A stretch of 60,731 nt of DNA from Smithella sp. (GTDB lineage Bacteria > Desulfobacterota > Syntrophia > Syntrophales > Smithellaceae): assembly GCA_049664145.1 (NCBI GenBank), contig JBATES010000123.1, positions 1 to 60,731 on the forward strand, read 5' to 3'. Positions within the stretch are counted from its first letter, which is position 1. The number at the start of each line of letters is the position of its first letter. This document shows, piece after piece, positions 22,713 to 58,863 of the stretch. The notes beneath the pieces are model-generated. The model had not been told where the DNA came from and did not search any database. It was given only the letters and a program-made list of their open reading frames with translations. The translations under genes and the position numbers were made by a program.

Positions 22713-24029
22713 TTACTGAGAATCATAACTGGAGATCAGTCCCAGAAACACCCAAAAAATATAGGCGACTGATGCGACGCTGATATTAAAAAAAGCTTGC
22801 GCCAGGTAGCCCAGTACCGCTGCCGCAAACGGGACATATACAGGGCTTTGCCTCATTTTGACCAGACTTCTTTTCAGCACGAGCATAATAAAAATAAAAT
22901 ATATAATTAATGAGGGAATGCCCGTCGATACAGCAATGTTCAGGTATTCGTTATGAGCTTTATCAGGATGGGATGCTCTACCGAAGCCCAATTTCTGAGC
23001 CACAGATTCCTTGCCGAATTTCTGACCAAAAGGTTCCAGAAGATTTTCTATTCCATACCCGGTCCATGGTTTTTCTTTGATAAGTTCGATGACTTTCTCC
23101 CAGATATAAAACCGGGCAAGGCCGGATTCCGTTGCGCCACTCCTGTTGATGGCATCTTCGGTCACTTTTTGATCACTTTTGATCACTTCCCGGGCATCTT
23201 TCGAAATGGAATGCAATCTACTGGAAAAAATGTTGCCTGTCGTCATGTTGAAAATAAAGACAGCCAGGACAGTCATCAGCAGGGCATAGATTATTCTTCG
23301 CCGGTCTTGCCTGAAATTGCCATAAAAATATAGATTCATGAAGATATAAATGCTGATGGCCACCCCGATGCCGATCCACGGCCCCCTGGAGAGTGTACAA
23401 ACAAGGGCATAAATCATTACAGCGCAACAGATGCCCGATAAAACCTGCCTGTGCGCGATACAATTATATAGCACAACCGGGATAACGAGTACCAAATAGC
23501 TGCCGAAGAAATTCGGATTGCCGAATGTGGCGAAAGCGGTTTTCCAGCCCCCTCGGATAAAGTCTCGGGGAAACGGATCGAATCCATAGAATTGCGCAAT
23601 CCCGTATATGGATAATATCGTCGCCGAAATGGTTATCCTAATGAAGAGCTTTTTGCCAGGCAGTGTCACGGTGCGGGCAGCTAAAAACAAAAGAAAATAA
23701 CTCAGTAAAGTCATTAAACCTTCAGATCTGTATTGCCTCCCCACAATAGCCATTTTGATATTGTGAGCAAAAAACAGGGATATTATTAAAAGCAAAGCAT
23801 AAAAGAGAAGAAAGAGATTGATAAGATCAAACTTAATCAAAGAACGTATGTTTTTCCCGCTCAGGATCAGGATAAAAAGAAACATCGCGGCAATAACAAC
23901 CAGTGCATATGCCTTGGGCGCATAAAAAAAATCGCCGTTTTTTCCAACAGGGAAAAATATAAAGGGGACTAATGCAACGGCTGCAAAAATCAGATATTCT
24001 ATTCTTTGTTTCGCGGTTGTGAGATCCAC
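22713..24029 (-). CDS. O-antigen ligase/polymerase family membrane protein (Wzy_C/WaaL-type)
   Basis: About 11 TM segments with a periplasmic loop carrying HPDKAHNEYLNIAVSTGIPSLIIY (the AHN.YL....G signature of the O-antigen ligase family). Confidence 0.75.
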   Translation of the reverse strand: MDLTTAKQRIEYLIFAAVALVPFIFFPVGKNGDFFYAPKAYALVVIAAMFLFILILSGKNIRSLIKFDLINLFLLFYALLLIISLFFAHNIKMAIVGRQYRSEGLMTLLSYFLLFLAARTVTLPGKKLFIRITISATILSIYGIAQFYGFDPFPRDFIRGGWKTAFATFGNPNFFGSYLVLVIPVVLYNCIAHRQVLSGICCAVMIYALVCTLSRGPWIGIGVAISIYIFMNLYFYGNFRQDRRRIIYALLMTVLAVFIFNMTTGNIFSSRLHSISKDAREVIKSDQKVTEDAINRSGATESGLARFYIWEKVIELIKEKPWTGYGIENLLEPFGQKFGKESVAQKLGFGRASHPDKAHNEYLNIAVSTGIPSLIIYFIFIMLVLKRSLVKMRQSPVYVPFAAAVLGYLAQAFFNISVASVAYIFWVFLGLISSYDSQ

Positions 24030-24078
24030 TTACTTATTCCGTTTTTTCTAAAATAGTTTGTGTCTTATTATAAACAAA

Positions 24079-24987
24079 TCAATTCTTCGGCAAATCATTT
24101 TTATCGAGCTGAAATTTACGAGGACGAAAATTAAGATCACGGTTTGCCTCGCTATGATCAAAAACCATATCCTGATTCATTCTTTCCGCCATGGCAAAAG
24201 ACCAGTGACGAAACGGCGGGAAAACCCGCAGGATGGCCATAGCCGCACGAAATAGCCACAGGGGAAATTGAATAAAGCGACGTGTTTTGCCCAGCGCAGA
24301 AAAAATGCGACAAACCATTTCCCGATAAGTTAACACCTCTCCTCCGGAAATATGATAAAAGCGATTATGAGCCGCACGCGTCTTCAAAGCTTGCACACAG
24401 GCAAACGCCACATCGTTGGCGTGCAGGGGCTGGCGCAGTCCGCGGGCATCACCGAAAACACAAAAGAAAGAAAATCGACGTATGAAAGAGGCTATCACAC
24501 TGATATTTCCATCACGTCCCAGGCCGTAAATCATTGTCGCGCTCAGTATGGTAAAACTTATTTTTTCTTTTTCAGCCCACCCGGTTAAACTTGCTTCCGC
24601 CGTTTTCAGACGTTCCGCCAGTTTTTTTTCAGCCGGATCATCAGAGGTGCTTTTGGTAAATTTACTGGTTGAAGAAACCGTCACGATATGTCTGGCTCCA
24701 TAAGCCAAAAGCATCGGAAAGTATTCCGGCAAGACCCAGATTGGCGCCAGATTAATCCAGTACGATATTTTGTTTTCTGCCGGAGAAATATTGTTGATGT
24801 CCGATAAAGAGGATTTTGTCAGTCGCTTCCAGATAATAGAATTATTTTTCGATGTCGATTGAAAGCACTGTTCCTGACGTGAAAAAGCCACGACATCATA
24901 TCCCTCTTGAACCAATAAGGGCAAAAGAAATTCGCCCACAATGCTTGTCGCGCCAATGACGCCAACGCATCTTTTATAAGTAGCCAT
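24079..24987 (-). CDS. NAD(P)-dependent epimerase/dehydratase-family (SDR) protein
   Basis: Rossmann motif VIGATSIVGEFLLPLL, about 300 aa extended-SDR length, glycan-operon context. Confidence 0.65.
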   Translation of the reverse strand: MATYKRCVGVIGATSIVGEFLLPLLVQEGYDVVAFSRQEQCFQSTSKNNSIIWKRLTKSSLSDINNISPAENKISYWINLAPIWVLPEYFPMLLAYGARHIVTVSSTSKFTKSTSDDPAEKKLAERLKTAEASLTGWAEKEKISFTILSATMIYGLGRDGNISVIASFIRRFSFFCVFGDARGLRQPLHANDVAFACVQALKTRAAHNRFYHISGGEVLTYREMVCRIFSALGKTRRFIQFPLWLFRAAMAILRVFPPFRHWSFAMAERMNQDMVFDHSEANRDLNFRPRKFQLDKNDLPKN

Positions 24988-24991
24988 TTGT

Positions 24992-25879
24992 TTATCTTTT
25001 CATTAAGTTTCTTGCGCTATGGAAAACAGCTACGGCACCGAATCTCAACCAAACACCTATTCCAACAATCCACAACAACAAGCCCGGATATTGATGCCGG
25101 AAAAATTTACGATAGAAACGCATCATGCCTTTATGCTTATGCCATTCCACAAAAACAGGCCTTGCTTGGCTGCAAGTGCCCTGATGATGAACTACCCGGG
25201 CATCCGGGACAAACATTATTTTCCAACCCTTCTGACGAAAACGCATACACCAGTCCAGATCTTCACAGTGCATGAAATAATTCTCATCCAACAAGCCGAC
25301 ATCCGACAAAGCTTCACGCCGGACCAACATACAGGAACCGGAAATGGCCTCCACTTCCGCCGGACTATCCGGCAGCGGTTGTTGATGCAGTAAAAAATCA
25401 GTAAAGAGACGTGGAAATCTTTGACCGAGCTTTGACAATCCAAACGCACGAATAAAAGAACGCCACGGCGTCGGTACGGATCTTCTTCCCCCGGACTGTT
25501 CTGTTCCATCCGGATTGAGCAACAGCGGCCCGGCCATACCTGTTTCCGGCGATGACTTCATAAACGCCAACAACAGCTCCAGGGCATTTCCGTCAATCAA
25601 ACAATCCGGATTCAGAAAAAGCAGATATTCGCAATTGCCGGCAGCTTCAACACCGATATTACATGCCCTCGCAAAACCTAAATTTTTACTATTACGAATG
25701 CAAATCAAACGAGATTGCAAAGCGGCCAGCTGGTCCATTTCATCCATGCTGTGATCTGTAGATCCATTATCAACAACAAACACCTTAGCAACAGACGCCG
25801 AACCCAACAGCATATTGAAAGACTCTTTCAACAAAGGACCGGCATTATAATTGACAATTATTGCTGATACGTTTCGCAT
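24992..25879 (-). CDS. glycosyltransferase family 2
   Basis: VSAIIVNYNAGPLL, VFVVDNGSTDHS, LFLNPDC, CEDLDWCMRFRQKGWKI (rhamnosyltransferase-like GT2 motifs). Confidence 0.85.
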   Translation of the reverse strand: MRNVSAIIVNYNAGPLLKESFNMLLGSASVAKVFVVDNGSTDHSMDEMDQLAALQSRLICIRNSKNLGFARACNIGVEAAGNCEYLLFLNPDCLIDGNALELLLAFMKSSPETGMAGPLLLNPDGTEQSGGRRSVPTPWRSFIRAFGLSKLGQRFPRLFTDFLLHQQPLPDSPAEVEAISGSCMLVRREALSDVGLLDENYFMHCEDLDWCMRFRQKGWKIMFVPDARVVHHQGTCSQARPVFVEWHKHKGMMRFYRKFFRHQYPGLLLWIVGIGVWLRFGAVAVFHSARNLMKR

Positions 25880-26869
25880 TTAGAACCACCTCTGCCGGAT
25901 TTGCTTTAATCCAGGAAGAAACCGCTTATCCAATATTTTCCAGATATCTCCTGAAGATACTTTTCGATTTTTTTGAATTTCGCGCCGTTTCTGCCACATG
26001 CGGGGGATACCATAAAGAGCATCTCTTTTGGCCTTCAATATTACCTTACCCTGACCTCGCACAGTAAACCAGACGATGGTTATGAGATTAAGTGCTATAT
26101 GCGCTGGAAGCAACAGCCAAAACAGCGCACCCGGCATATTTTTTATATACGTCCAAACCAAATTACGGTGGCCGTGATATACGGCAAAATCACTGCGTCG
26201 CCCTCCTGCGGTCGCCGATCCGACATGATAGGCCACAGCCTCGGGTACCAGAAGACAGCGATGACCGGCAAGACGCAGACGGAATCCAAGATCAACATCC
26301 TCAAAATAGCAAAAGAATGCTTCATCAAATCCATTCACTGCTTCCAGGGCATCGCGCCGATATAGCGCGGCCGCCGCGCAGGGAGAAAATATTTCCCTGG
26401 ATTCTATAGAGGCCCTGGATACTGGTTGACCATATCCTGTCCGCCAAGCCAGACCGCTTGCATGCATCGTATCGCCATCACCATCGAGTATTTCTTGATT
26501 TTCAGCCTGTACAAGACGTGATGCAAAAAAGGAATATTCAGGATGGGCCAGTGCCGCTTTTAACATTTTGCTTAGCCACTCCGGCTCCAGAAACGCATCC
26601 GGATTCACCAGCGCTATCCAATCATATCCTTTTGTTTTTTGAAACAGCAGATTGTTCCCGGCCGCAAAACCAATATTATTTTCGCTTTTGAAAAATTTTA
26701 CAGAAGGAAATCTGATTGAGTAATCTTCCGGTATTGGATCCTCGCTGCCATTATCCAAAACAAGTATATCGGAAGTAATGAATTTCTGACCGATAAAGCA
26801 TTCCAGACAACGGACAAGCATGGCGTTTGAGTTATAATTGACAATAAAAATTGCAATTTTATTTTGCAT
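25880..26869 (-). CDS. glycosyltransferase family 2 with C-terminal TM
   Basis: IAIFIVNYNS, ILVLDNGSED, LVNPDAF, FEDVDLGFRLRLAGH. Confidence 0.85.
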   Translation of the reverse strand: MQNKIAIFIVNYNSNAMLVRCLECFIGQKFITSDILVLDNGSEDPIPEDYSIRFPSVKFFKSENNIGFAAGNNLLFQKTKGYDWIALVNPDAFLEPEWLSKMLKAALAHPEYSFFASRLVQAENQEILDGDGDTMHASGLAWRTGYGQPVSRASIESREIFSPCAAAALYRRDALEAVNGFDEAFFCYFEDVDLGFRLRLAGHRCLLVPEAVAYHVGSATAGGRRSDFAVYHGHRNLVWTYIKNMPGALFWLLLPAHIALNLITIVWFTVRGQGKVILKAKRDALYGIPRMWQKRREIQKNRKVSSGDIWKILDKRFLPGLKQIRQRWF

Positions 26870-27323: not shown

Positions 27324-28754
27324 TCAGTTGCGACTGTGTAAATATTTGACGGAAATCTGTGCGGGTTGTAGGGGAGCAAGATAATATCTCTCAATTAGCA
27401 ACTTTGGAGTGCTAAAAATTGTAAATATTCCTAAAAGGATAACCAGACATAGCGCGATTTTCCGAAATATACCCCCGTAGAATTTTAATCCCCCTGAAAT
27501 GGCATAAGCAATCATAATCATTGGAATTAAAAAATATCGACCTTGAACACTTTGGATCAGGCTGGCAGGATGCTGATTATCTTTTATCAATATTGCAAAG
27601 AATATCAAAAGAATAGAAGTAAGCGCACTGAAAAAAAGGATCGACCGCGCAACCCACTCCTTCTTAAAGTTTTTAGCTGACACGGATAGCAGACCAATCA
27701 AGATAGTGCATGTGAAAAAAAACTTATATGCTTTTGGGCTGAATGGCGTATCCAGCCATCCGAGGTATCCAAAGAAAGACGCTCCATAGAATTGAGCAAG
27801 GCCAATATTCGAAAGTGTCGCCCACAGAACATTGAAGAATTGTAGGGGATTTTTAATGTAAAAGACAGTGGCATTTGATGTTGAATGTCCTACAACAAAT
27901 CTGGAATCAATGGTTGTATGCATTGTAAAACCAAGCCACGCAATAATAAAAAACGCTGCAGCAGTAAAAACACAAAAAAACTTCTTGTTCTTGGTGTAAA
28001 AACAAGCCGCCAAAACAAGGATTACTAAGGGCAGCAAAAAAGGTCTGCTCGTCGTTACCAGAGCGACAGAAAATGTAAGTATATAAAAGAACCAGGGGCT
28101 TGTATTGTCTTTTTCAGTTGTCATTCGTAAAAACGTCGCAATGGCAAGAATTCCCAGGGCGGTTGAAATACCATCCTGACTGGCAGATGAGATTTGAAAT
28201 ACACTCATCGGTATAATGAGCAGAGCGATTGTTAGGGGGTTCACAGGGTATATGTTAAATGTGACGAACAAAATTATTGCGATGGACACAAGAGCTATGA
28301 ATCTGGCCAAACGGTAGGATGTATCGACCGACAGCTTTAATTTTTCACCTAACGCAAGCCCCACTGCTTGAGGCGTGTATATTATCGGAAAATAGTAACT
28401 GATTCCCGGCAAGGAACGGAATTCTTTAGTACCTGTCCATTTAATGCGGTTTGCAGAATATACTTCGTCAGCGGATAACTTTCTTTCTGGTTTGCGTGGC
28501 AGAACTTCATAGGAGGACATGTAGGCCATAAGCCCGGAGTCTATCCTGCCGCCCGAATCCTTCCCTTTGGGCGCATCCAAAACAATCTTACCCTTGCTTA
28601 ATAAATAAGCGCGACTAATATGGTCAAACTCATCCGGAGATTGAAAGGGAGGGATGATTGCTGAAAAAAAAGATCCGGCAACAAGAATAAATAATATCAT
28701 CCACAAACTTACTTTATTTGATGAACCCATGGAGATTTGTTTCTCAAAATCCAT
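27324..28754 (-). CDS. polytopic membrane protein, DUF2142-like (GT-C-type glycosyltransferase candidate)
   Basis: About 12 TM segments. First periplasmic loop has the PDEFDHISRAY motif typical of DUF2142 proteins. Family recalled from memory. Confidence 0.5.
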   Translation of the reverse strand: MDFEKQISMGSSNKVSLWMILFILVAGSFFSAIIPPFQSPDEFDHISRAYLLSKGKIVLDAPKGKDSGGRIDSGLMAYMSSYEVLPRKPERKLSADEVYSANRIKWTGTKEFRSLPGISYYFPIIYTPQAVGLALGEKLKLSVDTSYRLARFIALVSIAIILFVTFNIYPVNPLTIALLIIPMSVFQISSASQDGISTALGILAIATFLRMTTEKDNTSPWFFYILTFSVALVTTSRPFLLPLVILVLAACFYTKNKKFFCVFTAAAFFIIAWLGFTMHTTIDSRFVVGHSTSNATVFYIKNPLQFFNVLWATLSNIGLAQFYGASFFGYLGWLDTPFSPKAYKFFFTCTILIGLLSVSAKNFKKEWVARSILFFSALTSILLIFFAILIKDNQHPASLIQSVQGRYFLIPMIMIAYAISGGLKFYGGIFRKIALCLVILLGIFTIFSTPKLLIERYYLAPLQPAQISVKYLHSRN

Positions 28755-28804: not shown

Positions 28805-30016
28805 TTAATGACTTTTTTCCACTATAATTCTTCTTATTTTACGAAGCCATTGTCCCGTTGCTGTAGAAGGGGGGAACAAGAAGTTGAGTGCTTTCTTATA
28901 AGTGATTTTCTGTGCAATCTGATCTCTGCGACTTTTTTCAACATCGCGCCTGTATGTTTCTCTGACCCACTTATAATAACATGCGCCCTCTGTAACAACA
29001 AATGGGTTAGGGAAAAGGCCATATAGGTCTCTTCTCACATGCAATATTTTACGTTCAGCTTTTGAAATTAACTTGCCATTCGAATAATCTTTGTATTTAT
29101 ACGGAATTTTTTCTACCAGCTTCTGTCCGTTCTCTATTAACTGTTTCTCGTATATGGCGGATAGAATAGTTACCTCTCGATTCTTATCGTTATAATTCAA
29201 AGCTCTTTGCATCTCGTTATGGTGCCCTCCTGTATCAAAACCGGAAAAATGAAAAAATCTTAATGGCTTCCCATTGACGGTGTACGAACCATCTTCTTTC
29301 CGTTTGATATGCCTTCGAGTCATGTTCCATGTGCAAACATTATATCCCGGGTCTTTCAAGATATGATATCCATCAAAATAAGCCGGGACAAGATCAATCC
29401 ATTTTTGATCCGTAAACATACCAAGAAGACCATCCGGTTCAAGAATATTTAATAATTCATAATCATCATCAAAACAATAAAGCATCAGGCGATTATTCCA
29501 CCACTTTAAAAACTTAAGGCCGGTTTCGTCAGCCTTTACGCCAAAAAAACCCAAATTGTAAGTGCCACGTTTGAGAAATAAGATCTCGTTGGATACGACA
29601 TATGAATCATCTTCTTCAAAGTCAAGTTGATGGGGTGTAAAGATCATACTGTACTTATCAAGCAGAAGATCGATTTCTTGCATTTCCGCAAAAACCATAA
29701 TGTCCGGATCCAGGTACACAACCTTCTCAGCATTGTATTCTTGGATCAACGTGAGGGCAATGGCGGGCTTAACGGCTGTGCATACTTCGGTGACTGTATG
29801 CTTGAAGAAAAATAAATCTTTCTGCGTAATCAATTCAAGCTCATGTGTCAGTAAAATCCCGTCAAAGGGCTCCATGGCCGGATTAAAGTCGAAGGGTAGA
29901 TCACCGGTCAATCCCACGTAAAACTTGCTGTGAGGATTGTACTTCTTCAAAGTTTTGCACAATACCCTTGCCTTGGCGAGATAGTTTTCTGTGATGCTTG
30001 TAAAATAATGGATCAT
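28805..30016 (-). CDS. putative GT-A-fold glycosyltransferase (GT8-like). ATG 30016 behind an AGGTGA RBS is preferred to GTG 30028.
   Basis: N-terminal MIHYFTSITENYLAKARVL, CTAVKPAIALTL and VVYLDPDIMVF (DxD) resemble nucleotide-diphospho-sugar transferases. Strongly A+T-rich. Confidence 0.45.
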   Translation of the reverse strand: MIHYFTSITENYLAKARVLCKTLKKYNPHSKFYVGLTGDLPFDFNPAMEPFDGILLTHELELITQKDLFFFKHTVTEVCTAVKPAIALTLIQEYNAEKVVYLDPDIMVFAEMQEIDLLLDKYSMIFTPHQLDFEEDDSYVVSNEILFLKRGTYNLGFFGVKADETGLKFLKWWNNRLMLYCFDDDYELLNILEPDGLLGMFTDQKWIDLVPAYFDGYHILKDPGYNVCTWNMTRRHIKRKEDGSYTVNGKPLRFFHFSGFDTGGHHNEMQRALNYNDKNREVTILSAIYEKQLIENGQKLVEKIPYKYKDYSNGKLISKAERKILHVRRDLYGLFPNPFVVTEGACYYKWVRETYRRDVEKSRRDQIAQKITYKKALNFLFPPSTATGQWLRKIRRIIVEKSH

Positions 30017-30071
30017 AATGAATGTCACCTTCGTATCGTATATATTCAGCTCAATAAATGATGCATCCTGT

Positions 30072-46144: not shown

Positions 46145-46149
46145 CTTCT

Positions 46150-51801: not shown

Positions 51802-52796
51802 GGATGGACCTCTCTGCCGATGCGCGCGAAAAAGACATACCCAAATGTTCTGGCCAGATGCAGGGAAATTAACAAAACCGGAACCACCATCAAGACCGAG
51901 AGGCTTTTCTTCCACCAGGCTCCACAAATTGCGGTCAGGACAACAGCCGCCAGATAGGATCCGGCCATGAAAAGAAGCACCGGTGTGATCCACGGAGAAA
52001 AAATTGAGGCGATCCCCAGCAGCGCGAGGCCTGCAAAGAAGAGGGCCATCGTGAAATGCGGCAGGCGGTGGATGCCCGCTTTCCTGCAAACGGCAGCCAT
52101 GGCCGCATTGCGGGCCAAGAAAGCTTTAAAATTTGTGTCACGGCTGTGTTCGACCCAGACTGATGGCGCATAGACTACTTTGCCATTTTGCGCCTCGATT
52201 CGGTCGATGAGATCGACATCCTCGTGAACCTGCAGGCCAGGATCAAAAATCAACCGGCCTTCCGGTCCGTCCAGCGCCACTTGCCTGGCAAGGGTTGCCC
52301 GAACGCACATATTCCAGAGCTTGGGATAATACCCCCCCGCCTTGAACGACCGGTCGGATCGAGTTCCCCCTGTGGCGAACCACGAATTCAAAACAACGTC
52401 CAGTGCATTATCAAAATCTGATGCGTCCTGAGCCAGAACATCCGAGCCACCGATAACAGCCACTCCTGGATTGTCGACAAAAACGCGCTCAATCTTTAAT
52501 AGCCAGTCCGCAGGCAATACACAATCATCATCAGAAAACACCCAATATTGACTGCGTGCCGCTTCGCAGGCCTCGTTAAGCGCGTTTGAACGATGGCCTT
52601 GCGATTCTATCAGAGACCAGTCCGGTTTGGCATACCGGTCAAAAATATCCCGAGCAATCTTTGACTCCCCCGAGACAATCACTTCATAGCCATCCGCGGG
52701 CGCAGTCACGTTTTGCAGGGAAGACAAAGCGCTTTCCAGAAACCGGCCGCCGTGACAAACAGGCAGGATAACGCTGAACATCGGCTGTTTATCCAT
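51798..52796 (-). CDS. glycosyltransferase family 2-like with C-terminal TM helices
   Basis: FSVILPVCHGGRFLESAL, WVFSDDDCVLPADW (DxD), three C-terminal TM segments. Confidence 0.75.
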   Translation of the reverse strand: MDKQPMFSVILPVCHGGRFLESALSSLQNVTAPADGYEVIVSGESKIARDIFDRYAKPDWSLIESQGHRSNALNEACEAARSQYWVFSDDDCVLPADWLLKIERVFVDNPGVAVIGGSDVLAQDASDFDNALDVVLNSWFATGGTRSDRSFKAGGYYPKLWNMCVRATLARQVALDGPEGRLIFDPGLQVHEDVDLIDRIEAQNGKVVYAPSVWVEHSRDTNFKAFLARNAAMAAVCRKAGIHRLPHFTMALFFAGLALLGIASIFSPWITPVLLFMAGSYLAAVVLTAICGAWWKKSLSVLMVVPVLLISLHLARTFGYVFFARIGREVHP

Positions 52797-52874: not shown

Positions 52875-53927
52875 TCACAACGCTTTCCCGACAAAAATAA
52901 GATTTTTAAGGCTTTCAAGATGTCCCCTGCTTTCTCGCTGGATATTATCGAGCATTGGAATCTCAAAGTCGTCGGCAAAATGACGAAGGCGGCGAGCACT
53001 CATCAGTAAGGTGCATAATCGGGGAACATCCTGATGTTCATAGTAAAGAGAGGATAATTGAAGATTATTCAGCATCATTTTTGTTTTGGGATGTCCGAAA
53101 AGCGAAATAAACGGAATTCCATAACTCATGCAGACAACGCCTGTATGCATTTGCGTTGAACAGAGGAGATCCAGAGAGCTCAAAACGTCCAAATCGGCTG
53201 CAAGCTCATTGAAGGAATAATACTCAATATTCTGTCCGCGACCAAACCATTTCTTCAATCGGGCCACATTTTCCTTTTTTCCGGTGATATCGATTAGCAC
53301 AAAGTCGATATGCTTCTGCGAACGGGTAATAGCCGCTAACAGAATCGGGAGGTATGCTGCTCGCCGCCTGATCAAAGGCGTTGCGTGCAAATGAATTCCT
53401 ACGCGAAATCTCTTGTTTAGCGGGCGCTTCCTTGGAAAACAAGATGATGTTTGCCAGACAATGTCCGGGAAATATTCCAGCTTGGGAGGTTTGGGCAATT
53501 GTCCAAGCCAATCCAGATCCTGCCTGTTTCTGACGCTTATATACTTTACATTCTGCAAAAACATTTTCTGACAATTCCACAGGGGTTCGGGATACGCACC
53601 GTTTCCACCCAGTGAAAAACCATACAGAGGAATACCTCTGCGCCGGGCAAGTTCAATCAGTCGATCGCGGACAGATGAATATCGCAGTGCGAATTGCATA
53701 TGGCCGCACAAGAAGCCGCCTCCCCCGTAAACAATCGCATCCTTTTCCTCCAATAATTCTTCCAGGGAATGCGCGACGGAAAAATCATATGGTTGGGCGT
53801 ACTCGGAACGCAGTTTATAAACGGAAAAGGGAACTTTGCCGGTCTTAAGAAAACGGCTGAAAATAACGCCCATCAAATCATCGCCAAAGTTATGATCGTC
53901 ATAGTTACCGAATAACGCTATCTTCAT
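52875..53927 (-). CDS. polysaccharide pyruvyl transferase family protein (ATG 53927 preferred; ORF opens at 53954)
   Basis: MKIALFGNYDDHNFGDDLMG N-terminus and YGGGGFL motif, typical of CsaB/WcaK-type pyruvyl transferases. Confidence 0.6.
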   Translation of the reverse strand: MKIALFGNYDDHNFGDDLMGVIFSRFLKTGKVPFSVYKLRSEYAQPYDFSVAHSLEELLEEKDAIVYGGGGFLCGHMQFALRYSSVRDRLIELARRRGIPLYGFSLGGNGAYPEPLWNCQKMFLQNVKYISVRNRQDLDWLGQLPKPPKLEYFPDIVWQTSSCFPRKRPLNKRFRVGIHLHATPLIRRRAAYLPILLAAITRSQKHIDFVLIDITGKKENVARLKKWFGRGQNIEYYSFNELAADLDVLSSLDLLCSTQMHTGVVCMSYGIPFISLFGHPKTKMMLNNLQLSSLYYEHQDVPRLCTLLMSARRLRHFADDFEIPMLDNIQRESRGHLESLKNLIFVGKAL

Positions 53928-54033
53928 CAAAGTCCCCTCCCGGCCGGATGACATTACTGAGCGACCTCAGTGCCTTTTCCAGAAAAGATCCTCCGTGACA
54001 CACGGGCAGGATTATACTAAACTTCGGTGTCAT
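53905..54033 (-). pseudogene. 42-codon relic of a GT2 gene N-terminus
   Basis: Hand translation: MTPKFSIILPVCHGGSFLEKALRSLSNVIRPGGDFDEDSVIR*. It parallels MDKQPMFSVILPVCHGGRFLESALSSLQNVTAPADGYE of 51798-52796. It has an ATGA overlap with the radical SAM stop and overlaps the pyruvyl transferase start. Confidence 0.6.
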
Positions 54034-55178
54034 ACAACCTCTTTGTTATGGCCTGGAATCATCCATCTGTCAGCGATCGCAAAACATTGAACAGTGCAAT
54101 CCTCAGCAATCCGGTTTTTGTACGTGCAATTGCGGCATAAATAGAAGTCATTGTGCCCGGAGTTGAAGGCCTTTCGAAAGTCCGCAGCCACACGGCTCTT
54201 CCAGACGCTTAGAACATTCCTGTCTTTGATGTTGCCGAATGAGTGTTTGTTCTTATACTCGAATTCGCAGGGAATTATCTCGCCTGTCGCATCCATGGTG
54301 ATGCGCTTCCACGGCCGCATGCAAACAAAAGGCTTTTCTTTTCGTGTGAACGTGCCCGCATTATACTCATACCTGCGATAATCGGATTTTTCCGGCGCAT
54401 AGGATTGATCCAGATCACTTCCCAGAACCGGGGGCATATCCACGGTTTTCAATGTAAAATAATCAACGCCAAGTTTTTTCGCCAGGTCCCGTGCTGCCGG
54501 CACCTCAGATTCATTGTGGCGCATGACGACAAAACGCATGTTGATTCTCGGTGTGTCCACGCCTTTCATGGAGCGCACGCGCAGAATCTTCTGTATGTTG
54601 GAAACCACAATATCAAGGCGGCCGCCCTGACGATACTGTTCATAGGTCTTTTGCGTAGCGCCGTCTACCGCAACAACCAGAGAGTCGAGGCCTGAATCCA
54701 CCAGGGCTTCGGCCTGTGCCTCATCGAGCGGCACATTGCCGTTGGTGCTGGTATGCACAATGATGCCCTTCGCTTTGGCATAGGCAATCATTCGAATCAG
54801 ATCCGGATTGAGGAAGGGCTCACCCCAGTTCCAGAAAATGAGGTGCAACAGATAGTCGCCGCAATCATCAATAAACTGTTTGAAAGTCTGAAAGGGCAAT
54901 AAACTGGGCCTTCTGGATTTGGTAATGGATGACGTCAGGCACAATGGGCAGGACAAATTGCAGAAATTAGCCGGCTCGACCTGGGCGATGACCGGATAGC
55001 CCAGCGGTCGTGACGGCAACAGGTATTGATTTAATCCGGCCAGAAAAAAATTGGCCGCTTTGCGCAGGCCGATCTTTCTGGCGGAATAGGGAAGCAGTTC
55101 AAATTCAAAATCGAATTGACCTTTGAAAAACAGAGCCGGTATTTGAAATGCAACATCACGCAGTTGAAATATTTTCAT
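54030..55178 (-). CDS. radical SAM enzyme with C-terminal SPASM-type Cys-rich domain
   Basis: CNLSCPLC (CxxxCxxC) cluster motif, GEPFLNP. C-terminal cysteines CMRPW...CEFEY...CRNCTYKN. Confidence 0.85.
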   Translation of the reverse strand: MKIFQLRDVAFQIPALFFKGQFDFEFELLPYSARKIGLRKAANFFLAGLNQYLLPSRPLGYPVIAQVEPANFCNLSCPLCLTSSITKSRRPSLLPFQTFKQFIDDCGDYLLHLIFWNWGEPFLNPDLIRMIAYAKAKGIIVHTSTNGNVPLDEAQAEALVDSGLDSLVVAVDGATQKTYEQYRQGGRLDIVVSNIQKILRVRSMKGVDTPRINMRFVVMRHNESEVPAARDLAKKLGVDYFTLKTVDMPPVLGSDLDQSYAPEKSDYRRYEYNAGTFTRKEKPFVCMRPWKRITMDATGEIIPCEFEYKNKHSFGNIKDRNVLSVWKSRVAADFRKAFNSGHNDFYLCRNCTYKNRIAEDCTVQCFAIADRWMIPGHNKEVV

Positions 55179-56119
55179 ATTGGGTCCTTCCCCAGCCAGG
55201 CGCTCAGCTCTCTTCCGATGAGATCCTGTAGCTTCAAAATGTCCTCTCTGTAATAGCTCCGCAGACTGCGCTCTATATCATACGGCATCGCCTCTGGTTT
55301 GTCCATGTTGATGAACCGGACGCGGTCGCGCAGGCGGATCCACCTATCTGCTCCCAGGATCGAACCGCCGATGGTTCGGGCAATCTTGTGCAGCCTTTTA
55401 GGCTTAAAGAAAAGATCGTTGAAAAGACTCCAACGTGGAATACCTGAGACATTGTGATTGTGGTTTCTATCCGGAATAAAATTTGGCTCAACGTCGAGAA
55501 AAGCATATACGGAATGAATCAGCGTAATGGGATCGCGCAGGAGATCATCATGGAGAAGAACCTTCACTCGGCTGAATTGCTTTTGAAAGGCATGCACCCT
55601 TGGAGCATACAAGCCACCTTGCAGATAGTGCCACATACACGCATACCCATCCTGTATACGTTCTTCCTCCGCGGCCAAAGCGTCTTTAAAACAAAGCTTT
55701 TCACGGCCATCCCGTACATGATAATTATAGGCGGAATAGGCGCGTTTTACCGGATCCCTCAGAATAATAATGATCCTGGGATCGCCAAGATATCGTTGAA
55801 TGGCCGGTATCGTCTTTTCAAAAAGAAACAGAGTGTCCACGCTGGCCTCACCTATCGCCTTCTTGCCAACACTTTTTTTAAACAAGCCAAGGTAATCGTC
55901 AAACAAGCCTATGCTGCTTTGTGCAACTATATTGTCGCCGGGGCCTCTGCCCGGATTGGCCGCGCGACCGCTCAAATATCGCGGTTCCTTGACCGGGCTC
56001 ATAAAGACATCCGGATGCTGCCGGAGATAATGATAAAGCGATGTCGTGCCGCATTTGGCCGCACCTGCAATCAGAAAGTTCGGCAGAATCGGTTGGACTA
56101 TTTTTGACATTCCCATCAC
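55175..56119 (-). CDS. sulfotransferase-domain protein (paralogue 2)
   Basis: 5'-PSB loop FLIAGAAKCGTTSLY, 3'-PB IIILRDPVKRAYS. 4-nt overlap with the radical SAM gene. Confidence 0.85.
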   Translation of the reverse strand: MMGMSKIVQPILPNFLIAGAAKCGTTSLYHYLRQHPDVFMSPVKEPRYLSGRAANPGRGPGDNIVAQSSIGLFDDYLGLFKKSVGKKAIGEASVDTLFLFEKTIPAIQRYLGDPRIIIILRDPVKRAYSAYNYHVRDGREKLCFKDALAAEEERIQDGYACMWHYLQGGLYAPRVHAFQKQFSRVKVLLHDDLLRDPITLIHSVYAFLDVEPNFIPDRNHNHNVSGIPRWSLFNDLFFKPKRLHKIARTIGGSILGADRWIRLRDRVRFINMDKPEAMPYDIERSLRSYYREDILKLQDLIGRELSAWLGKDPI

Positions 56120-56219: not shown

Positions 56220-56930
56220 TCAGCTCTGCGTCGAAACCAAAGCGCCGCGATCCAAACGGATGGTTCGGTTGCAGATTGTCGCAACAAGTTCCGGTGAATG
56301 CGTGGCGATAATCAGAATGCTGGATTTCTGAACAATCTCATGAAGCCGCTGCTGCGCTTTTTCCTTAAAATCAGCATCCCCGACGGTCAGCCATTCGTCC
56401 ATCAAGAGAATTTCGGGCTGGACAAGGGTGGCGATGGAAAAGGCCAACCGCATCTGCATGCCGGTAGAATAAGTCCGCAGCGGCATGCGGATGAAATCAC
56501 CAAGACCGGCGAAATCTACAATGTCACTTATTTTTGAGGATAACCATTGCCGGTGGAAACCGAGCAGCGCTCCACGAAGGTAAATGTTTTCAACCCCGGT
56601 TGCCTCACCATCCATCCCGAGACTCAGATCAATCATACTGGTAATTTTTCCCTGGACTTCGATAGCACCTTCTATCGGCTCATAAACTCCGGAAATGACG
56701 CGCAGCAATGTGCTTTTCCCCGCGCCATTATGACCAACTAAACCCACCCGGTCCCCTTCTTTGAATTCAAGACAAATGCTTTGCAAAGCCCTCACGACCA
56801 CACGCCCCTGTTCGTTGGAACCCATACGGCCGCCGGTTGCTGCCTGCATCAGCTGATTTTTCAGCGAACGCCCGGTGGTATTATAAATCGGAAAATCAAC
56901 GCATACATTATTCATACGAATGTGTGTCAT
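56220..56930 (-). CDS. polysaccharide ABC exporter ATPase, short form (no C-terminal binding domain; Wzt/KpsT/TagH-like)
   Basis: Walker A GHNGAGKSTLL, signature YSTGMQMRLAFS, Walker B ILLMDEWL, 236 aa. Confidence 0.85.
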   Translation of the reverse strand: MTHIRMNNVCVDFPIYNTTGRSLKNQLMQAATGGRMGSNEQGRVVVRALQSICLEFKEGDRVGLVGHNGAGKSTLLRVISGVYEPIEGAIEVQGKITSMIDLSLGMDGEATGVENIYLRGALLGFHRQWLSSKISDIVDFAGLGDFIRMPLRTYSTGMQMRLAFSIATLVQPEILLMDEWLTVGDADFKEKAQQRLHEIVQKSSILIIATHSPELVATICNRTIRLDRGALVSTQS

Positions 56931-56939
56931 AAACCAGTC

Positions 56940-57764
56940 CTATAACCAGTAAGCTATGCGCGAGCGAAAGCGTCCGTAAAATAAAATGGTGATGCCCCAC
57001 CCTGCCAAAGCGAGCATAATACAGACCAGCCAGTTCAAAGCGGATGGTAATGTCCCCATTAAGGGAGCGCGGACAATTTCGATTAAATGGAAAAACGGAT
57101 TGGCATCCAGCAAAAGAAAACTGGCGCGTTTCGGTAACAGATGCGGCATCCAGATGATCGGTGTCAGGTAAAAGAAAACCTGCAACAGATTGGAAACGAT
57201 CTGAGGAATGTCGCGATAACGGGTGCATAAAACGCCAAGCAGTAGAGCCATCCAGGACAGGTTGATCATCAACAGCACAAGGCCCACGACAGACAAAGCA
57301 GCGGACGGACGCAAAGGCAACCAAAAGACGAGCAACACCAAAGGATAGATGACGATATTGTGGCCAAAAATAACCAGGTTGCGCCATATCACCCGCAGAA
57401 TGTGGGTAAACAGAGGCAAAGAAATTTGCTTGATGATGGCTTCAGCCACGGTGAAGCCCGTGCAGCCTTCGGTCAGTATCGTCGTGATCAGCGTCCATAA
57501 AATCAACCCGACCGTCAGAAAAGGGAGAAACTCTTTCATGGAGGTGTCAAAAAGATTACCGAAGACCAGACCGAGCGCTCCAATTAAAACGCCCATGCTG
57601 ATGGTAATCCAAAACGGTCCCAGCGATGAACGCCGGTAGCGCTGGCGAATATCCTGCCAGCCCAGCACACCGGCGAGTTCATATCTTTTCAACGCCGCGA
57701 AGATATCCTGCCAACCGGATTTAAAAATTCTTAATAAAAATCCCTGACTATTTATACTCATCAA
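56940..57764 (-). CDS. polysaccharide ABC exporter permease (ABC-2 type, Wzm/KpsM-like)
   Basis: Six TM segments. GWQDIRQRYRRSSLGPFW N-terminal ABC-2 motif. Paired with the ATPase downstream. Confidence 0.85.
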   Translation of the reverse strand: MMSINSQGFLLRIFKSGWQDIFAALKRYELAGVLGWQDIRQRYRRSSLGPFWITISMGVLIGALGLVFGNLFDTSMKEFLPFLTVGLILWTLITTILTEGCTGFTVAEAIIKQISLPLFTHILRVIWRNLVIFGHNIVIYPLVLLVFWLPLRPSAALSVVGLVLLMINLSWMALLLGVLCTRYRDIPQIVSNLLQVFFYLTPIIWMPHLLPKRASFLLLDANPFFHLIEIVRAPLMGTLPSALNWLVCIMLALAGWGITILFYGRFRSRIAYWL

Positions 57765-57789
57765 TCATCACTTGGTAATAATTATTCTT

Positions 57790-58863
57790 TTACAAACTTA
57801 CCGCCATTTTTGTGCGAATGTACCAGCTTATGAAAGCAAAAACAAGAAAGCAGGTTGTGAGAAACAGCACGACCGTTCGCGCCCCATAAGCGTAAAGCAT
57901 TAGAACGCCACCGCCAATGGCGAGCTGTACCATGCCATACAGCAGCGTTACTTTCCAGTGAGCGATTCCCCGTTCATTGGCCAGAATCTGGTACAGGTGA
58001 CGTCGATGCGGTTTTGTTAGATTTTCTTGATCCTGAAGACGGATGGCCATCGTCGTGAGTTCATCAGCGTAAAAGGGAAAAAGCAGCGCTGCAAAACAGA
58101 CCATCTCGAGGTAATTCCTGGCCAAAGTAACAACCAGCGCGGCAAAGACAAATCCCAGCAGGATGCTGCCGACATCCCCCATGAAAACCCTGGCACGAAA
58201 CATATTCAATGGAAGATAGCCAAGACACGCCAGGCCAAGACAGATGGAAAAAAGAGACAAGGCTGTTTGGAAGGCCTCTGCCGGCATGCGGTCAAGGGTA
58301 TAAATGCCCAGCAAGCCGAAGGCGATGACGCCACTGAGACCGGCAATGCCGTTGATGCCGTCCATAAAATTATAAAAGTTCGCCGTGCCGATCAGAAAAA
58401 TAAAAATCAGCGGCAGAAGCAGCAGGAAAATAAACGGAGAAAAGCCGAAAGTGGAAATGTCGTAATGGGCACTGAGTCCGGGCAACAGGGGAAACAGAAA
58501 AATCAAAGCGCAAATAAGTTGAACAATAAGCCGGAATTTGACCGAGATTCGAAAGTAATCTCCATAGAAACTGACGGCAGAAATGAGAATCGCGGCAAAA
58601 AGAAAGGTTGTCGGAATGCGCAATGTCAGTCCCGCCACGATGAAAGCCGCCAGAATACCCACGCCGCCACCCCGCGGGGTCGGTTCCGTATGCGAACTGC
58701 GCTCTTTGGGCACATCCAGCAGATGTTCCCGGAACGGAATGCCGGCAATCAGCCAGGCGCCGGCAAAACCGAGACCGGTACAGGTCAAAAACAGCAGGAA
58801 GATCCTGTGCTGTGTCACCCCGGCGACAAGTTGATTAAAAATGTTGGTTATCTCTTGAATCAT
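57790..58863 (-). CDS. polyprenyl-phosphate N-acetylhexosamine-1-phosphate transferase (MraY/WecA family), initiating enzyme
   Basis: About 10 TM segments. NFYNFMDGINGIAG and VFMGDVGSILLGF motifs of the glycosyl transferase 4 (MraY/WecA) family. First gene after the promoter element. Confidence 0.85.
   Translation of the reverse strand: MIQEITNIFNQLVAGVTQHRIFLLFLTCTGLGFAGAWLIAGIPFREHLLDVPKERSSHTEPTPRGGGVGILAAFIVAGLTLRIPTTFLFAAILISAVSFYGDYFRISVKFRLIVQLICALIFLFPLLPGLSAHYDISTFGFSPFIFLLLLPLIFIFLIGTANFYNFMDGINGIAGLSGVIAFGLLGIYTLDRMPAEAFQTALSLFSICLGLACLGYLPLNMFRARVFMGDVGSILLGFVFAALVVTLARNYLEMVCFAALLFPFYADELTTMAIRLQDQENLTKPHRRHLYQILANERGIAHWKVTLLYGMVQLAIGGGVLMLYAYGARTVVLFLTTCFLVFAFISWYIRTKMAVSL

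Follow-up and report, generated by a model that had tools for sequence, protein, structure and literature searches.

The question raised by the locus at 22713-58863 of the window (the whole 60,731-nt stretch of DNA analysed) is whether it encodes the synthesis of a sulfated surface glycan together with its own supply of PAPS. The host belongs to Smithella (Smithellaceae) and is an uncultured syntroph with a diderm envelope. Its CysNC protein is 94-96% identical to copies in Smithella MAGs, and the same contig was recovered in Logan run SRR16297629 (locus L001). The 36-kb block comprises 30 genes and pseudogenes, all of which (30/30) are encoded on the minus strand, in agreement with the co-directional island described in the first-pass annotation. 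The stretch at 7053-18790, outside the island, is likewise minus-strand, and the island is therefore not defined by strand bias alone. Housekeeping genes (TolB/CpoB, cysS, rpsI/rplM, asd, rsmG) flank the island, and a hairpin with a T-run is located at 22615-22596, about 100 nt downstream of the last island gene. The many start/stop overlaps of 1-4 nt reported earlier are represented by five pairs read from the gene coordinates, namely ST2/rSAM (55175-55178), GT2e/GT4 (51798-51801, with GT4 starting as called in L001), PstB/CysD (43598), CysD/CysNC (42672-42675) and unk601/GT2c (34227-34230). Two further pairs, PstC/PstA and GT2b/GT2a, abut without a gap.

Nearly all functional calls of the first-pass annotation were recovered with Pfam and NCBIfam, including the WecA/MraY-family enzyme, two Wzm/Wzt pairs, Wzx, the pyruvyl transferase, the radical SAM/SPASM enzyme, DUF2142, a GtrB-like GT2 and Wzy_C. 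The glycosyltransferase domains, put at about ten, number approximately 11 if a pseudogene and a weak match of GT-A type are included. The locus is organised in a right block, a central cassette and a left block. The right block starts with a WecA-like initiating enzyme, a polyprenol-phosphate sugar-1-phosphate transferase (57790-58863; PF00953, E 2e-28; about 11 predicted membrane spans) with a weak, below-cutoff match to TIGR02380 (WecA). Exporter 2 consists of the ABC-2 permease Wzm2 (56940-57764; PF01061, E 4.7e-16) and the 236-aa ATPase Wzt2 (56220-56930), which matches PF00005 only; Wzt_C, and with it a cap-binding domain, was not found in the Pfam search. The carbohydrate-type sulfotransferase ST2 (55175-56119) shares its 4-nt overlap with the radical SAM/SPASM enzyme (54030-55178; PF04055 and PF13186), for which every NCBIfam match is far under its cutoff. 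The remainder of the block encodes a polysaccharide pyruvyl transferase (52875-53954; PF04230, E 1.8e-15; weak CsaB match), the glycosyltransferases GT2e (51798-52796), GT4 (50617-51801) and GT2d (49716-50678), to which PF00535/PF00534 were assigned jointly over 49716-52796, the ST2 paralogue ST1 (48745-49680; 46% identity) and a Wzx-type flippase of the MOP family (47190-48638; PF01943, E 1e-16; many predicted membrane spans). Six genes form the central cassette, a PstSCAB-like importer (43598-47121), CysD (42672-43598) and a CysN/CysC fusion (40771-42675).

The left block opens with exporter 1. Its permease Wzm1 (39808-40659; PF01061, E 2.2e-27) is paired with Wzt1 (37749-39869), which carries an ATPase domain (PF00005) and, at residues 296-430, a Wzt_C cap-binding domain (PF14524, E 1.4e-13); a GT2-like domain (PF13704) is added at its C-terminus. 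In the PDB, Wzt1 is matched best, over its residues 24-396, by the full-length Wzt of Aquifex (8DKU/7K2T, E 1e-67). An eroded sulfotransferase remnant (37198-37521) is followed by a GT14 (Branch) pseudogene (36135-37168), split by a frameshift such that PF02485 is matched in two overlapping ORFs, its N-terminal half in one and its C-terminal half in the other. The same split is present in L001; the first-pass annotation had passed over this pseudogene. The periplasmic glycosylation genes include unk601 (34227-36032), GT2c (33289-34230; PF00535) and a DUF2142 polytopic membrane protein (27324-28754; PF09913, E 3.4e-42; predicted membrane spans), a candidate periplasmic glycosyltransferase. GT2c is a GtrB-like polyprenyl-phosphate sugar synthase whose best NCBIfam matches, AglJ, PpgS and ArnC-type enzymes, are all under cutoff. 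The GT-C label given earlier to unk601 has its only basis in about 11 predicted spans of this 601-aa protein and in a PDE motif that follows the first of them; neither a family nor a PDB match was found. The block further encodes a 964-aa fusion protein (30072-32966), a 407-aa soluble protein with a DPD motif and weak GT-A (GT8/nucleotide-sugar transferase) similarity (28805-30028; below-cutoff matches to PF03407, E 0.011, and PF01501, E 0.023), two GT2 glycosyltransferases (25880-26869 and 24992-25879; both PF00535), an NAD-dependent epimerase/dehydratase-family protein (24079-24987; PF01370) and, as the last gene, a Wzy_C-family membrane protein of the O-antigen ligase/polymerase family (22713-24029; PF04932, E 2.6e-25).

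The 964-aa protein has the domain order sulfotransferase–coiled coil–GT2–GT2. Its N-terminus fails the Pfam sulfotransferase model (E 0.04). The domain is nevertheless upheld as the third intact sulfotransferase of the island by a family alignment, in which GMHRSGTS, KDPR, R134 and S142 are invariant, and by a fold search. The four top Foldseek matches of the N-domain model (pLDDT 88.8) are sulfotransferases, with polyketide (CurM, OLS) and tyrosylprotein sulfotransferases ranking highest; the match is moderate (TM about 0.5, E 6e-5) and P-loop kinases follow close behind. An 89-residue helix spans positions 256-344 in the full-length model (pLDDT 86.5), and the similarity of the C-terminal half to K4CP and PmHS2, both dual-GT polymerases, reaches E 1e-19. 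Full-length homologues of 950-1070 aa are widespread and number in the dozens. WbbB and Klebsiella O7 ORF6 share this terminator–ruler–polymerase arrangement, the place of the terminator being taken here by a sulfotransferase. In sister proteins such as P0160, an N-terminal methyltransferase replaces the sulfotransferase, which is the arrangement of WsaE and Klebsiella O7 ORF6, where the N-terminal methyltransferase modules are proven terminators (PMC2943079 and PMC11231755, respectively). Judged by this architecture, the sulfotransferase domain is possibly a terminator that adds a sulfate cap.

Alternatively, the domain could sulfate internal residues of each repeat during growth, with a coiled coil that only oligomerises or scaffolds and a Wzt domain that reads another feature or the sulfated backbone. 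The homologous loci bear on both readings. A Wzt with Wzt_C is encoded nearby in five of the seven loci examined (the window and 4/6 others), which argues for a cap, and 5/7 likewise encode CysNC or a dedicated APS kinase. Two of the seven lack a cap-binding Wzt, Wzt without this domain being encoded in L167 and L173, and L169 (Smithellaceae) combines a Wzt of the same reduced type with a free-standing sulfotransferase/coiled-coil protein. Separate methyltransferases, possibly the real cappers, are present in L170, L172 and L173, and the terminal pyruvate of Klebsiella O1 diversifies the chain without control of length or export (PMC11231755). Within the island, by contrast, the Pfam annotation contains neither a methyltransferase nor a Kdo transferase as another source of the cap, which leaves ST1, ST2 and the pyruvyl transferase as the only other candidates for exporter 1. 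Internal sulfation is kept as a tentative alternative, of less than even probability, to the sulfate cap.

An initiator at one end, a ligase-family gene at the other and Wzm/Wzt in between correspond to the layout of an O-polysaccharide locus, the cell has a diderm envelope and the window encodes Tol-Pal components, and Wza/Wzc or Kps outer-membrane export genes were not found in the island. These features speak against a capsule, EPS or S-layer/protein-linked glycan, for which the Wzy_C protein would be a polymerase or O-oligosaccharyltransferase instead of a WaaL ligase. The Wzy_C family takes in ligases, polymerases and PglL-type transferases, and the protein at 22713-24029 is assigned by its family match. 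A Wzx is also present, P0126, which among full-length homologues is nearest to the fusion protein, is encoded beside SLH-domain proteins, and WsaE-type enzymes make S-layer glycans (PMC2943079). On balance, a product other than an LPS O-polysaccharide appears less likely.

The PAPS-supply module proposed earlier is confirmed at the family level. CysD, the ATP sulfurylase small subunit (TIGR02039, 449 bits, cutoff 396.6), and the fusion of the ATP sulfurylase GTPase subunit with APS kinase (NF004035, 926 bits, cutoff 715) both exceed curated NCBIfam cutoffs, and the locus is predicted to encode everything needed for PAPS synthesis. The adjacent importer belongs to the Pst family, as had been stated, but a role in phosphate uptake is unlikely. 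Only PstC exceeds its NCBIfam cutoff; PstS (118 vs 206.6 bits), PstA (180.7 vs 193.45) and PstB (310.7 vs 343.2) do not. The anion pocket is remodelled, with four phosphate-ligand hydroxyls of E. coli PstS replaced (T10W, S38A, S139C, T141A), and these replacements are invariant across 30 diverse subfamily members. The position after 'SR', aligned with an Asp of Clostridium PstS (4GD5), is D/E in most members and N only in the Smithella group. CysD/N is located within 7 kb of the importer in 7/16 unbiased metagenome loci whose flanks each extend for 3.5 kb or more, and it directly adjoins the importer in L082 and L085 as well; in about half of the subfamily loci no cysDN is within reach. PstS-C-A-B-CysD-CysNC is contiguous in five Smithellaceae loci (L003, L005, L007, L008, L024) with differing glycan and sulfotransferase neighbours, and in L169 PstS-C-A-B leads into the beginning of CysD, where the sequence ends. 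The six-gene uptake and activation cassette is a conserved core in Smithellaceae, while the surrounding glycan genes vary between species. Gene neighbourhood and lost phosphate ligands make the Pst-like system a probable sulfate importer. It is improbable that the cassette serves ordinary phosphate uptake and assimilatory sulfate activation and merely lies inside a glycan locus. CysDN is used for sulfur assimilation in many bacteria, the binding protein is named 'PstS family phosphate ABC transporter substrate-binding protein' in databases, and the PstC score fits this view. Against it, CysN is fused to APS kinase, and the predicted product is therefore PAPS; cysH and sulfite reductase were not found in the window; and PhoU was absent next to the cassette wherever neighbours were listed or scanned. 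In at least six loci of the Smithellaceae, the cassette also remains surrounded by sulfotransferase genes and glycan genes, and the association of the transporter subfamily with cysDN is far beyond chance in unrelated metagenome contigs.

ST1 and ST2 are clear members of their family (PF13469 and PF00685), with matches to PDB 3RNL at E 7.7e-61 and 1.2e-58, respectively, and to heparan sulfate 3-O-sulfotransferases. Both PAPS-binding motifs are present in each (GAAKCGTTS and RDPVKRAYS in ST2). On proper alignment, the PAPS-binding residues, whose loss would have spoken against sulfation, are intact in all three domains. The eroded copy noted earlier corresponds to 37198-37521; it is of the type of the fusion's N-terminal domain, lacks the N-terminal P-loop and is recognised by weak but recurring tblastn matches from many family members ('FCYKDPHFSYTLPVW' aligned against 'FCIKDPRISILLPFW'). 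Sequence does not reveal acceptor specificity and the fold matches of the fusion's N-domain include polyketide and tyrosylprotein enzymes, but sulfation of lipids, peptides or small molecules with an unsulfated glycan is very improbable, given the heparan-type similarity of ST1 and ST2, the covalent fusion of one domain to a dual glycosyltransferase and the position of all three within tightly packed glycan operons, some with stop/start codon overlap.

The locus is best read as encoding a sulfated, probably pyruvylated surface glycan: the PAPS module and three intact sulfotransferase domains have as neighbours the genes that would assemble a polyprenol-linked glycan, export it, add pyruvate and ligate the product. 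The single pathway of the first-pass annotation is unlikely, since Wzx occurs beside two Wzm/Wzt exporters that differ in type (a cap-binding domain is present in exporter 1 and lacking in exporter 2) and relatives keep only the Pst-like/CysDNC cassette while surrounding glycan genes vary; the island likely contains more than one glycan pathway. With a probability of roughly 0.7, the locus is a surface-glycan super-locus that most likely yields a glycan of LPS O-polysaccharide type and is equipped for its sulfation. Sulfate would be taken up by the PstSCAB-derived importer and converted via APS to PAPS in the cytoplasm by CysD and CysN/CysC. The WecA-like enzyme would prime undecaprenyl phosphate, and cytoplasmic glycosyltransferases would build polyprenol-linked glycans. 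As PAPS is cytoplasmic, sulfation must precede export, and the two heparan-3-OST-like enzymes and the pyruvyl transferase would decorate the glycans at this stage. Export would use both Wzm/Wzt systems, exporter 2 without a cap-reading domain. In the left block, exporter 1 would be paired with the 964-aa protein: its GT2 modules may polymerise a disaccharide repeat, its distal sulfotransferase may place a sulfate on the chain end as soon as the polymer reaches the full length of the coiled-coil ruler, and the Wzt domain may read this cap. Periplasmic side branches would be added by the GtrB-like/GT-C-like pair and DUF2142, and the Wzy_C protein would ligate the chain to its acceptor.

The earlier statement that no such locus had been described is overstated. 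In the sulfated-capsule cluster published in 2024 for Vibrio sp. KMM 8419, cysC, cysN and cysD are present as second copies beside three sulfotransferase genes and an ABC exporter, a combination termed a hallmark of sulfated polysaccharide synthesis by its authors (PMC11641403). Pseudomonas and several MAGs encode a dedicated APS kinase beside Wzm/Wzt and sulfotransferase-fused polymerases. The general idea of a sulfated-glycan locus with its own PAPS supply is already published; two predicted parts of the Smithella locus, the sulfate importer and the sulfate cap, may be new.

The island at 22713-58863 comprises 30 genes or pseudogenes (ORF listing, Pfam/NCBIfam), all encoded on the minus strand as the first-pass annotation had claimed. 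The 1-4 nt start/stop overlaps it described are found at 55175-55178, 51798-51801, 43598, 42672-42675 and 34227-34230, and two more gene pairs abut with a gap of zero. Pfam and NCBIfam also bear out the WecA/MraY-family initiator (PF00953, 57790-58863), which is the polyprenol-phosphate initiator of the island, two Wzm/Wzt pairs, Wzx (PF01943), a pyruvyl transferase (PF04230), a radical SAM/SPASM enzyme, a four-gene Pst-family importer, DUF2142, a GtrB-like GT2 and a Wzy_C protein. Glycosyltransferase (GT) domains number about eleven, where about ten had been claimed. The locus probably (roughly 80%) directs the synthesis of a sulfated surface glycan and itself supplies the PAPS for it.

The proposed PAPS supply is upheld by the family models. 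CysD scores 448.8 bits with TIGR02039 (cutoff 396.6), the CysN/CysC fusion (CysNC) scores 926.5 bits with the CysN/APS kinase model NF004035 (cutoff 715), and the APS kinase domain of CysNC matches PF01583 (E 1.2e-63). The sulfotransferases ST1 (48745-49680) and ST2 (55175-56119) are paralogues with 46% identity, both above cutoff for PF13469 and PF00685. Along their entire length both align with the solved sulfotransferase 3RNL (E 8e-61 and 1e-58); their match to heparan sulfate 3-O-sulfotransferases is more distant. Aligned with 3RNL and heparan 3-OST-3, the 5'-phosphosulfate loop is intact in both, GAAKCG(T/M)TS, as is the 3'-phosphate Arg...Ser motif, R-(D/N)-P-V-x-R-A-(Y/F)-(S/A). By motifs and homology, ST1 and ST2 are assigned as PAPS-dependent sulfotransferases, with a glycan as the predicted sulfuryl acceptor. 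Loss of the PAPS-binding residues had been named beforehand as an observation that would speak against the proposal; since the motifs were found by alignment, this objection falls.

Three intact sulfotransferase domains had been counted. Two of them, ST1 and ST2, are clear; the third, at the N-terminus of a 964-aa fusion protein (30072-32966), is not seen by Pfam (E 0.04 across 26 residues only). Sequence and profile searches of the PDB with this domain gave nothing significant. Its 285 residues have more than 1,300 homologues, some with PF13469 and some named sulfotransferase family protein by NCBI. Across 49 full-length and 48 domain homologues, G9, H11, R12, G14, T15, S16, K105, P107, R108, R134 and S142 are invariant. 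The loop is of the type that we take to be 'xRSGT(T/S)' of TPST and CurM, and the spacing of 8 between R134 and S142 is presumably that of R130 and S138 in the cytosolic sulfotransferase SULT1E1. The AF2 model of the domain has a pLDDT of 88.8. Foldseek against the PDB places CurM, olefin synthase sulfotransferase domains, human TPST2 and tick TPST as the top four (E 6e-5 to 5e-4, with TM only about 0.5), and P-loop kinases come next in the list. The domain is treated here as a divergent sulfotransferase, as the motifs are present and the modelled fold is compatible; its catalysis is predicted.

The full-length AF2 model of the fusion (pLDDT 86.5) contains the sulfotransferase-like domain, an unbroken helix at residues 256-344, further helices up to about residue 407 and two GT-A domains. 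Heptad-like repeats are visible in the sequence, and the coiled coil itself is predicted. The GT-A portion shows similarity to the bifunctional polymerases K4CP and PmHS2 (E 1e-19). The full architecture is found in dozens of proteins of 950-1070 aa with 33-54% identity, and one relative (P0160) has a methyltransferase as its N-terminal module. The homologue P0122, from a related Smithella (contigs of up to 156 kb), is 87% identical in its residues 819-1473 to residues 316-964 of the fusion, and its N-terminus has a pyruvyl transferase with two additional GT2 modules where the fusion has the sulfotransferase and the coiled coil. Modules appear to have been swapped recently, the breakpoint being where the coiled coil ends. 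The database gene call P0121 (931 aa) covers 97% of the fusion ORF and is shorter by its first 33 codons (32868-32966). Its start is presumably Met34, which would drop the invariant GMHRSGTS loop. Given the N-terminal conservation in the 49 homologues, the fusion in fact starts at the upstream ATG (32966); automated gene calls in this family may conceal the sulfotransferase motif.

Exporter 1 is encoded by Wzm1 (PF01061) and Wzt1, which carries a Wzt_C module (PF14524, E 1.4e-13). Residues 24-396 of Wzt1 align to the full-length Aquifex Wzt 8DKU, the C-terminal module of which reads a methyl cap (PMC9445017). By analogy, the sulfotransferase domain of the fusion would add sulfate as a chain-terminating cap, and the carbohydrate-binding module of Wzt would read it. 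Pfam scans of the island found no methyltransferase or Kdo transferase for another cap; from this, the terminator-type architecture and Wzt_C, we tentatively infer that sulfate may be the chain-terminating cap. Seven loci with the fused architecture, the window included, were compared. A Wzt with Wzt_C is found nearby in five of the seven, immediately upstream in L168 (Pseudomonas sp. SP16.1) and L172, and a dedicated APS kinase or CysNC is likewise present in 5/7. The Wzt1 binding domain is clearly similar to that of the Wzt in L170. Sulfate could also be placed on every repeat, as an internal decoration rather than a terminal cap. This alternative, to which we give limited probability, draws on the loci L167 and L173, in which Wzt lacks the binding domain, on the Smithellaceae locus L169, in which a stand-alone sulfotransferase/coiled-coil protein is encoded beside a Wzt without binding domain, and on the methyltransferases also present in several loci with fusion homologues.

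As to the terminal cap, we know of no system in which termination by sulfate has been shown. Full-text literature searches gave nothing relevant that ties a sulfotransferase to chain termination or to Wzt; the census of Mann et al. 2019 may predict such terminators. In the wb cluster of Aeromonas salmonicida, a 216-aa ORF with a sulfotransferase domain lies between wzt and wbbB and was left unexplained by the authors, the published O-antigen structure being without sulfate (PMC4483657). A single sulfate per chain end in this O-antigen would easily be missed.

The right block of the island encodes, in this order, the WecA-like initiator, Wzm2, Wzt2 without binding domain, ST2, the radical SAM/SPASM enzyme, the pyruvyl transferase, three GTs, ST1 and Wzx. 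This block resembles a second assembly line, the polymer of which would be sulfated and pyruvylated internally. A role of the radical SAM enzyme as an anaerobic sulfatase maturase was discarded, as no such family is among the best 25 of its 42 NCBIfam matches. In the left block, the fusion is followed by a weak GT-A-like protein, DUF2142, two GT2 enzymes, an epimerase-family protein and the Wzy_C protein, which could be a polymerase or a ligase. Pfam gave no match to Wzz/PCP or Wza types in the island, and Wzx is present. The GT-C assignment proposed for 34227-36032 is tentative and based on topology: roughly 11 membrane spans are predicted for the protein, the first of them followed by 'YPDE', and no match was found in Pfam, NCBIfam or the PDB. 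Its gene overlaps the GtrB-like gene by 4 nt. In Klebsiella O2, gmlABC adds side branches in the periplasm after export; the GtrB-like/GT-C-like pair and DUF2142 would fit an analogous periplasmic side-branch addition. In the locus L171, DUF2142, GtrA and a GT2 are found together with a sulfotransferase-fused polymerase.

The C-terminal ~260 residues of Wzt1 (37749-38580) form an extra GT2-like domain (PF13704/PF00535) after the cap-binding domain. The extra domain is absent from the L168 and L170 Wzt; to our knowledge, no Wzt-GT fusion has been described. Just downstream of Wzt1 lies a decayed stretch. It contains the eroded sulfotransferase copy noted earlier, located at 37198-37521, which keeps 'FCYKDPHFSYTLPVW' (cf. 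'FCIKDPRISILLPFW') and has its P-loop missing, and a GT14 gene (Core-2/I-branching family, 36135-37168) that is frameshift-split into two overlapping ORFs and was missed by the first-pass annotation. A contig near-identical to the window is present in the Logan assembly SRR16297629 (L001). As the GT14 split is also found there, it marks a pseudogene and not a sequencing error. Identity between L001 and the window is 99% in the decayed stretch and 100% for most other genes.

The window proteins were compared by tblastn with 80 genomic loci found through CysNC, a search for syntenic loci having been suggested by the first-pass annotation. PstS-PstC-PstA-PstB-CysD-CysNC is a contiguous six-gene unit in the Smithellaceae loci L003, L005, L007, L008 and L024; the flanking glycan and sulfotransferase genes differ by species. 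In L169, the Pst-like genes are all four present, and the sequence ends shortly after CysD begins. Outside Smithellaceae, close CysD-CysNC pairs have no Pst-like neighbour. The four Pst-like genes of the island (43598-47121) score unevenly with NCBIfam. PstC is the sole component above cutoff (244.2 vs 196.45); PstS (118.4 vs 206.6), PstA (180.7 vs 193.45) and PstB (310.7 vs 343.2) are below. The SulT models CysT, CysW and CysA reach 31-127 bits against cutoffs of 240-502, all below, and NCBIfam gave no Sbp match for the binding protein.

In E. coli PstS, hydroxyl residues hydrogen-bond the phosphate; we take the ligands to be T10, S38, D56, R135, S139 and T141. Compared with this protein (reference sequence identical to PDB 1IXH), the binding protein of the island carries T10W, S38A, S139C and T141A and keeps R135, and the equivalent of D56 is ambiguous (S/N). 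The same changes are seen against Clostridium PstS 4GD5 (STS to AWA, SS to AG, GSGT to SCGA). The replacement residues are invariant in 30 diverse members of the subfamily with 57-86% identity. The residue after 'SR' is mostly D or E in the subfamily, and N only in the Smithella group. At least 7,987 database matches belong to this binding-protein subfamily.

Metagenome contigs were scanned with the subfamily's own motifs. CysD/CysN is within reach in 7 of the 16 metagenome loci flanked on either side by at least 3.5 kb, and in 19 of 28 loci in a looser count that includes L082 and L085; about half of the subfamily loci have no cysDN nearby. Where CysDN is found, the activation genes follow PstB directly or after one intervening gene (PF01663), and two distant subfamily members are encoded directly upstream of CysD/CysN. 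The second arrangement, with a gap of about 1.4-1.8 kb between the pstB-like gene and a more distant CysD (~40% identity), was seen in L085, L101, L102, L107, L109, L113, L116, L117, L130, L131 and L140; in L085, the gap gene belongs to the phosphodiesterase/nucleotide pyrophosphatase family (PF01663). Listed or scanned neighbours of related Pst-like loci are cysDN, glycan genes and assorted others. PhoU is absent from these neighbours and from the window. Beside the Pst-like loci without cysDN, the scanned neighbours (MFS, Fe-S/CCG, radical SAM and others) include no Sat-type ATP sulfurylase. There are hints that some Pst-like members occur in sulfate-respiring organisms. Next to one locus without cysDN (L119, 11652-14860), the genes that follow encode HdrD/DsrK-type CCG/4Fe-4S proteins.

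Judged by its pocket residues and gene neighbours, the Pst-like system is best read, with a modest preference, as a Pst-derived sulfate importer. On balance, the PstSCAB-like system would represent a previously unrecognised family of Pst-derived high-affinity sulfate ABC importers that occurs widely among bacteria of anaerobic sediment and sludge and is annotated as phosphate transporter.

The same-strand run of the island extends into the left flank (7053-18790), so strand bias alone cannot delimit the island; it is delimited by gene content. The flanks encode housekeeping functions, namely TolB, a CpoB-like protein, cysS, rpsI/rplM, asd, an Fe-alcohol dehydrogenase, a SpoU methylase and rsmG, and the Tol-Pal genes among them indicate a diderm cell. 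GC content ranges from 0.40 to 0.45 in the left block and from 0.47 to 0.515 in the right block; the flanks have 0.42-0.52. As there is no sharp foreign island, recent horizontal transfer is not claimed. Scans of the whole window for tRNA and Rfam families were empty, giving no tRNA-linked island boundary. CysNC is 96% and 94% identical to the copies in two uncultured Smithella MAGs and 84-89% identical to those in other Smithellaceae and Thermodesulfobacteriota MAGs. A cyanobacterial origin, hinted at by weak HpsN/HpsE matches, is ruled out by these Smithella and Smithellaceae relatives.

Consensus scans for promoters and terminators gave counts near those of shuffled sequence in the left half. 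In the right half, 35 promoter-like sites (shuffle mean 23.1) and 42 terminator-like sites (24.5) were found; they are mostly intragenic and do not define transcription units. About 100 nt downstream of Wzy_C, the minus strand carries a strong terminator-like hairpin with a T-run (22615-22596). The 1.07 kb between the PilZ gene and the island end (21640-22712) contain no ORF of at least 100 aa and one 57-aa ORF on the plus strand (21959-22131). The small ORFs of this stretch were considered as an eroded gene and rejected, as they have no family match. Just outside the island are a GT25-family (LPS glycosyltransferase) gene (20478-21251, plus strand) and a PilZ-domain gene (21259-21639, minus strand); an M14 carboxypeptidase-like gene is also found in 19042-21639. 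The PilZ protein could tie the locus to c-di-GMP control.

Methanogenic communities of sludge and sediment typically include Smithella. Measurements on granular sludge, both anaerobic and aerobic, have shown sulfated glycoconjugates in the extracellular matrix, with producers and pathways left open, and BLAST with reference sulfotransferases gave few matches in the dominant sludge genera (PMC10483923, PMC7356697). The locus is a concrete candidate gene set for these compounds. That the Pst-derived sulfate importer and the sulfate cap are both true is unlikely; if so, Smithella would be a genetically defined source of the sulfated glycoconjugates of anaerobic granular sludge. Sulfate as a chain-length cap would be new chemistry for the molecular-ruler model of O-antigens, and orphan sulfotransferase genes beside wzt, such as that of Aeromonas salmonicida (PMC4483657), might then be explained. 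The Pst-like cassette suggests that, of the proteins catalogued as phosphate ABC transporter, thousands may move sulfate, which would bear on sulfur and phosphorus cycling as read from metagenomes.

In synechan synthesis (xss, Synechocystis) and in the rhizobial NodPQ/NodH and LpsS systems, PAPS-dependent sulfotransferases encoded with glycan genes sulfate extracellular glycans or glycolipids. NodPQ is a dedicated CysDN/C copy; synechan relies on Wzx/Wzy and an outer-membrane export apparatus and is not known to have dedicated PAPS genes, and Nod factors are lipochitooligosaccharides and not Wzm/Wzt-exported polymers. The island resembles these systems in that sulfotransferases are encoded alongside glycan genes, and differs in its Wzm/Wzt export.

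A precedent for the putative importer is CysP of B. subtilis, in which a phosphate-transporter family (PiT) was recruited for sulfate. CysP is recognised by sulfate-activation gene neighbours and by lost phosphate-specific residues (PMC5840216), and the Pst-like system shares both traits. CysP is a secondary PiT-type carrier in a cys operon, whereas the system here is a four-component ABC system of the PstSCAB type; the five families of sulfate transporters (SulT, SulP, CysP/PiT, DASS and CysZ) include none derived from Pst (PMC5840216).

In its predicted module order, the fusion resembles WbbB (O12) and ORF6 (O7) of Klebsiella, in which an N-terminal modifying domain is followed by a long coiled coil and a C-terminal pair of GT modules (PMC11231755); all three are paired with a cap-binding Wzt. 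WsaE of Geobacillus stearothermophilus similarly combines an N-terminal modifying domain with two GT2-type domains and is encoded beside wzm/wzt (PMC2943079). The N-terminal module is a proven chain terminator in WbbB and ORF6 (PMC11231755) and in WsaE, where it makes the chain-ending cap (PMC2943079). In the terminator position, the fusion has a PAPS-sulfotransferase-like domain, in contrast to the Kdo transferase or methyltransferase-kinase of WbbB/ORF6 and to the methyltransferase of WsaE, which belongs to a Gram-positive S-layer glycan system. The caps listed so far are methyl, methyl-phosphate, Kdo and pyruvate (PMC9445017, PMC11231755).

The general design of the island is already published for the capsule of Vibrio sp. 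KMM 8419, a polymer chemically shown to be sulfated (PMC11641403), so the first-pass statement that such a locus had not been described was overstated. The Vibrio cluster likewise contains its own second cysD/cysN/cysC copies, several sulfotransferases and an ABC exporter, and its authors regarded PAPS genes that occur together with sulfotransferases within a glycan cluster as a hallmark of sulfated polysaccharide synthesis (PMC11641403). Its export is Kps-type (group 3 capsule) and not Wzm/Wzt, neither a linked anion importer nor a sulfotransferase-fused polymerase nor a cap-binding Wzt was reported (PMC11641403), and its host is an aerobic marine gammaproteobacterium, in contrast to Smithella, a syntroph of methanogenic habitats. 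What sets the island apart from the Vibrio cluster is thus the Wzm/Wzt (O-polysaccharide-type) context, the syntrophic host from methanogenic habitats, the putative Pst-derived importer and the predicted sulfotransferase in the terminator position.
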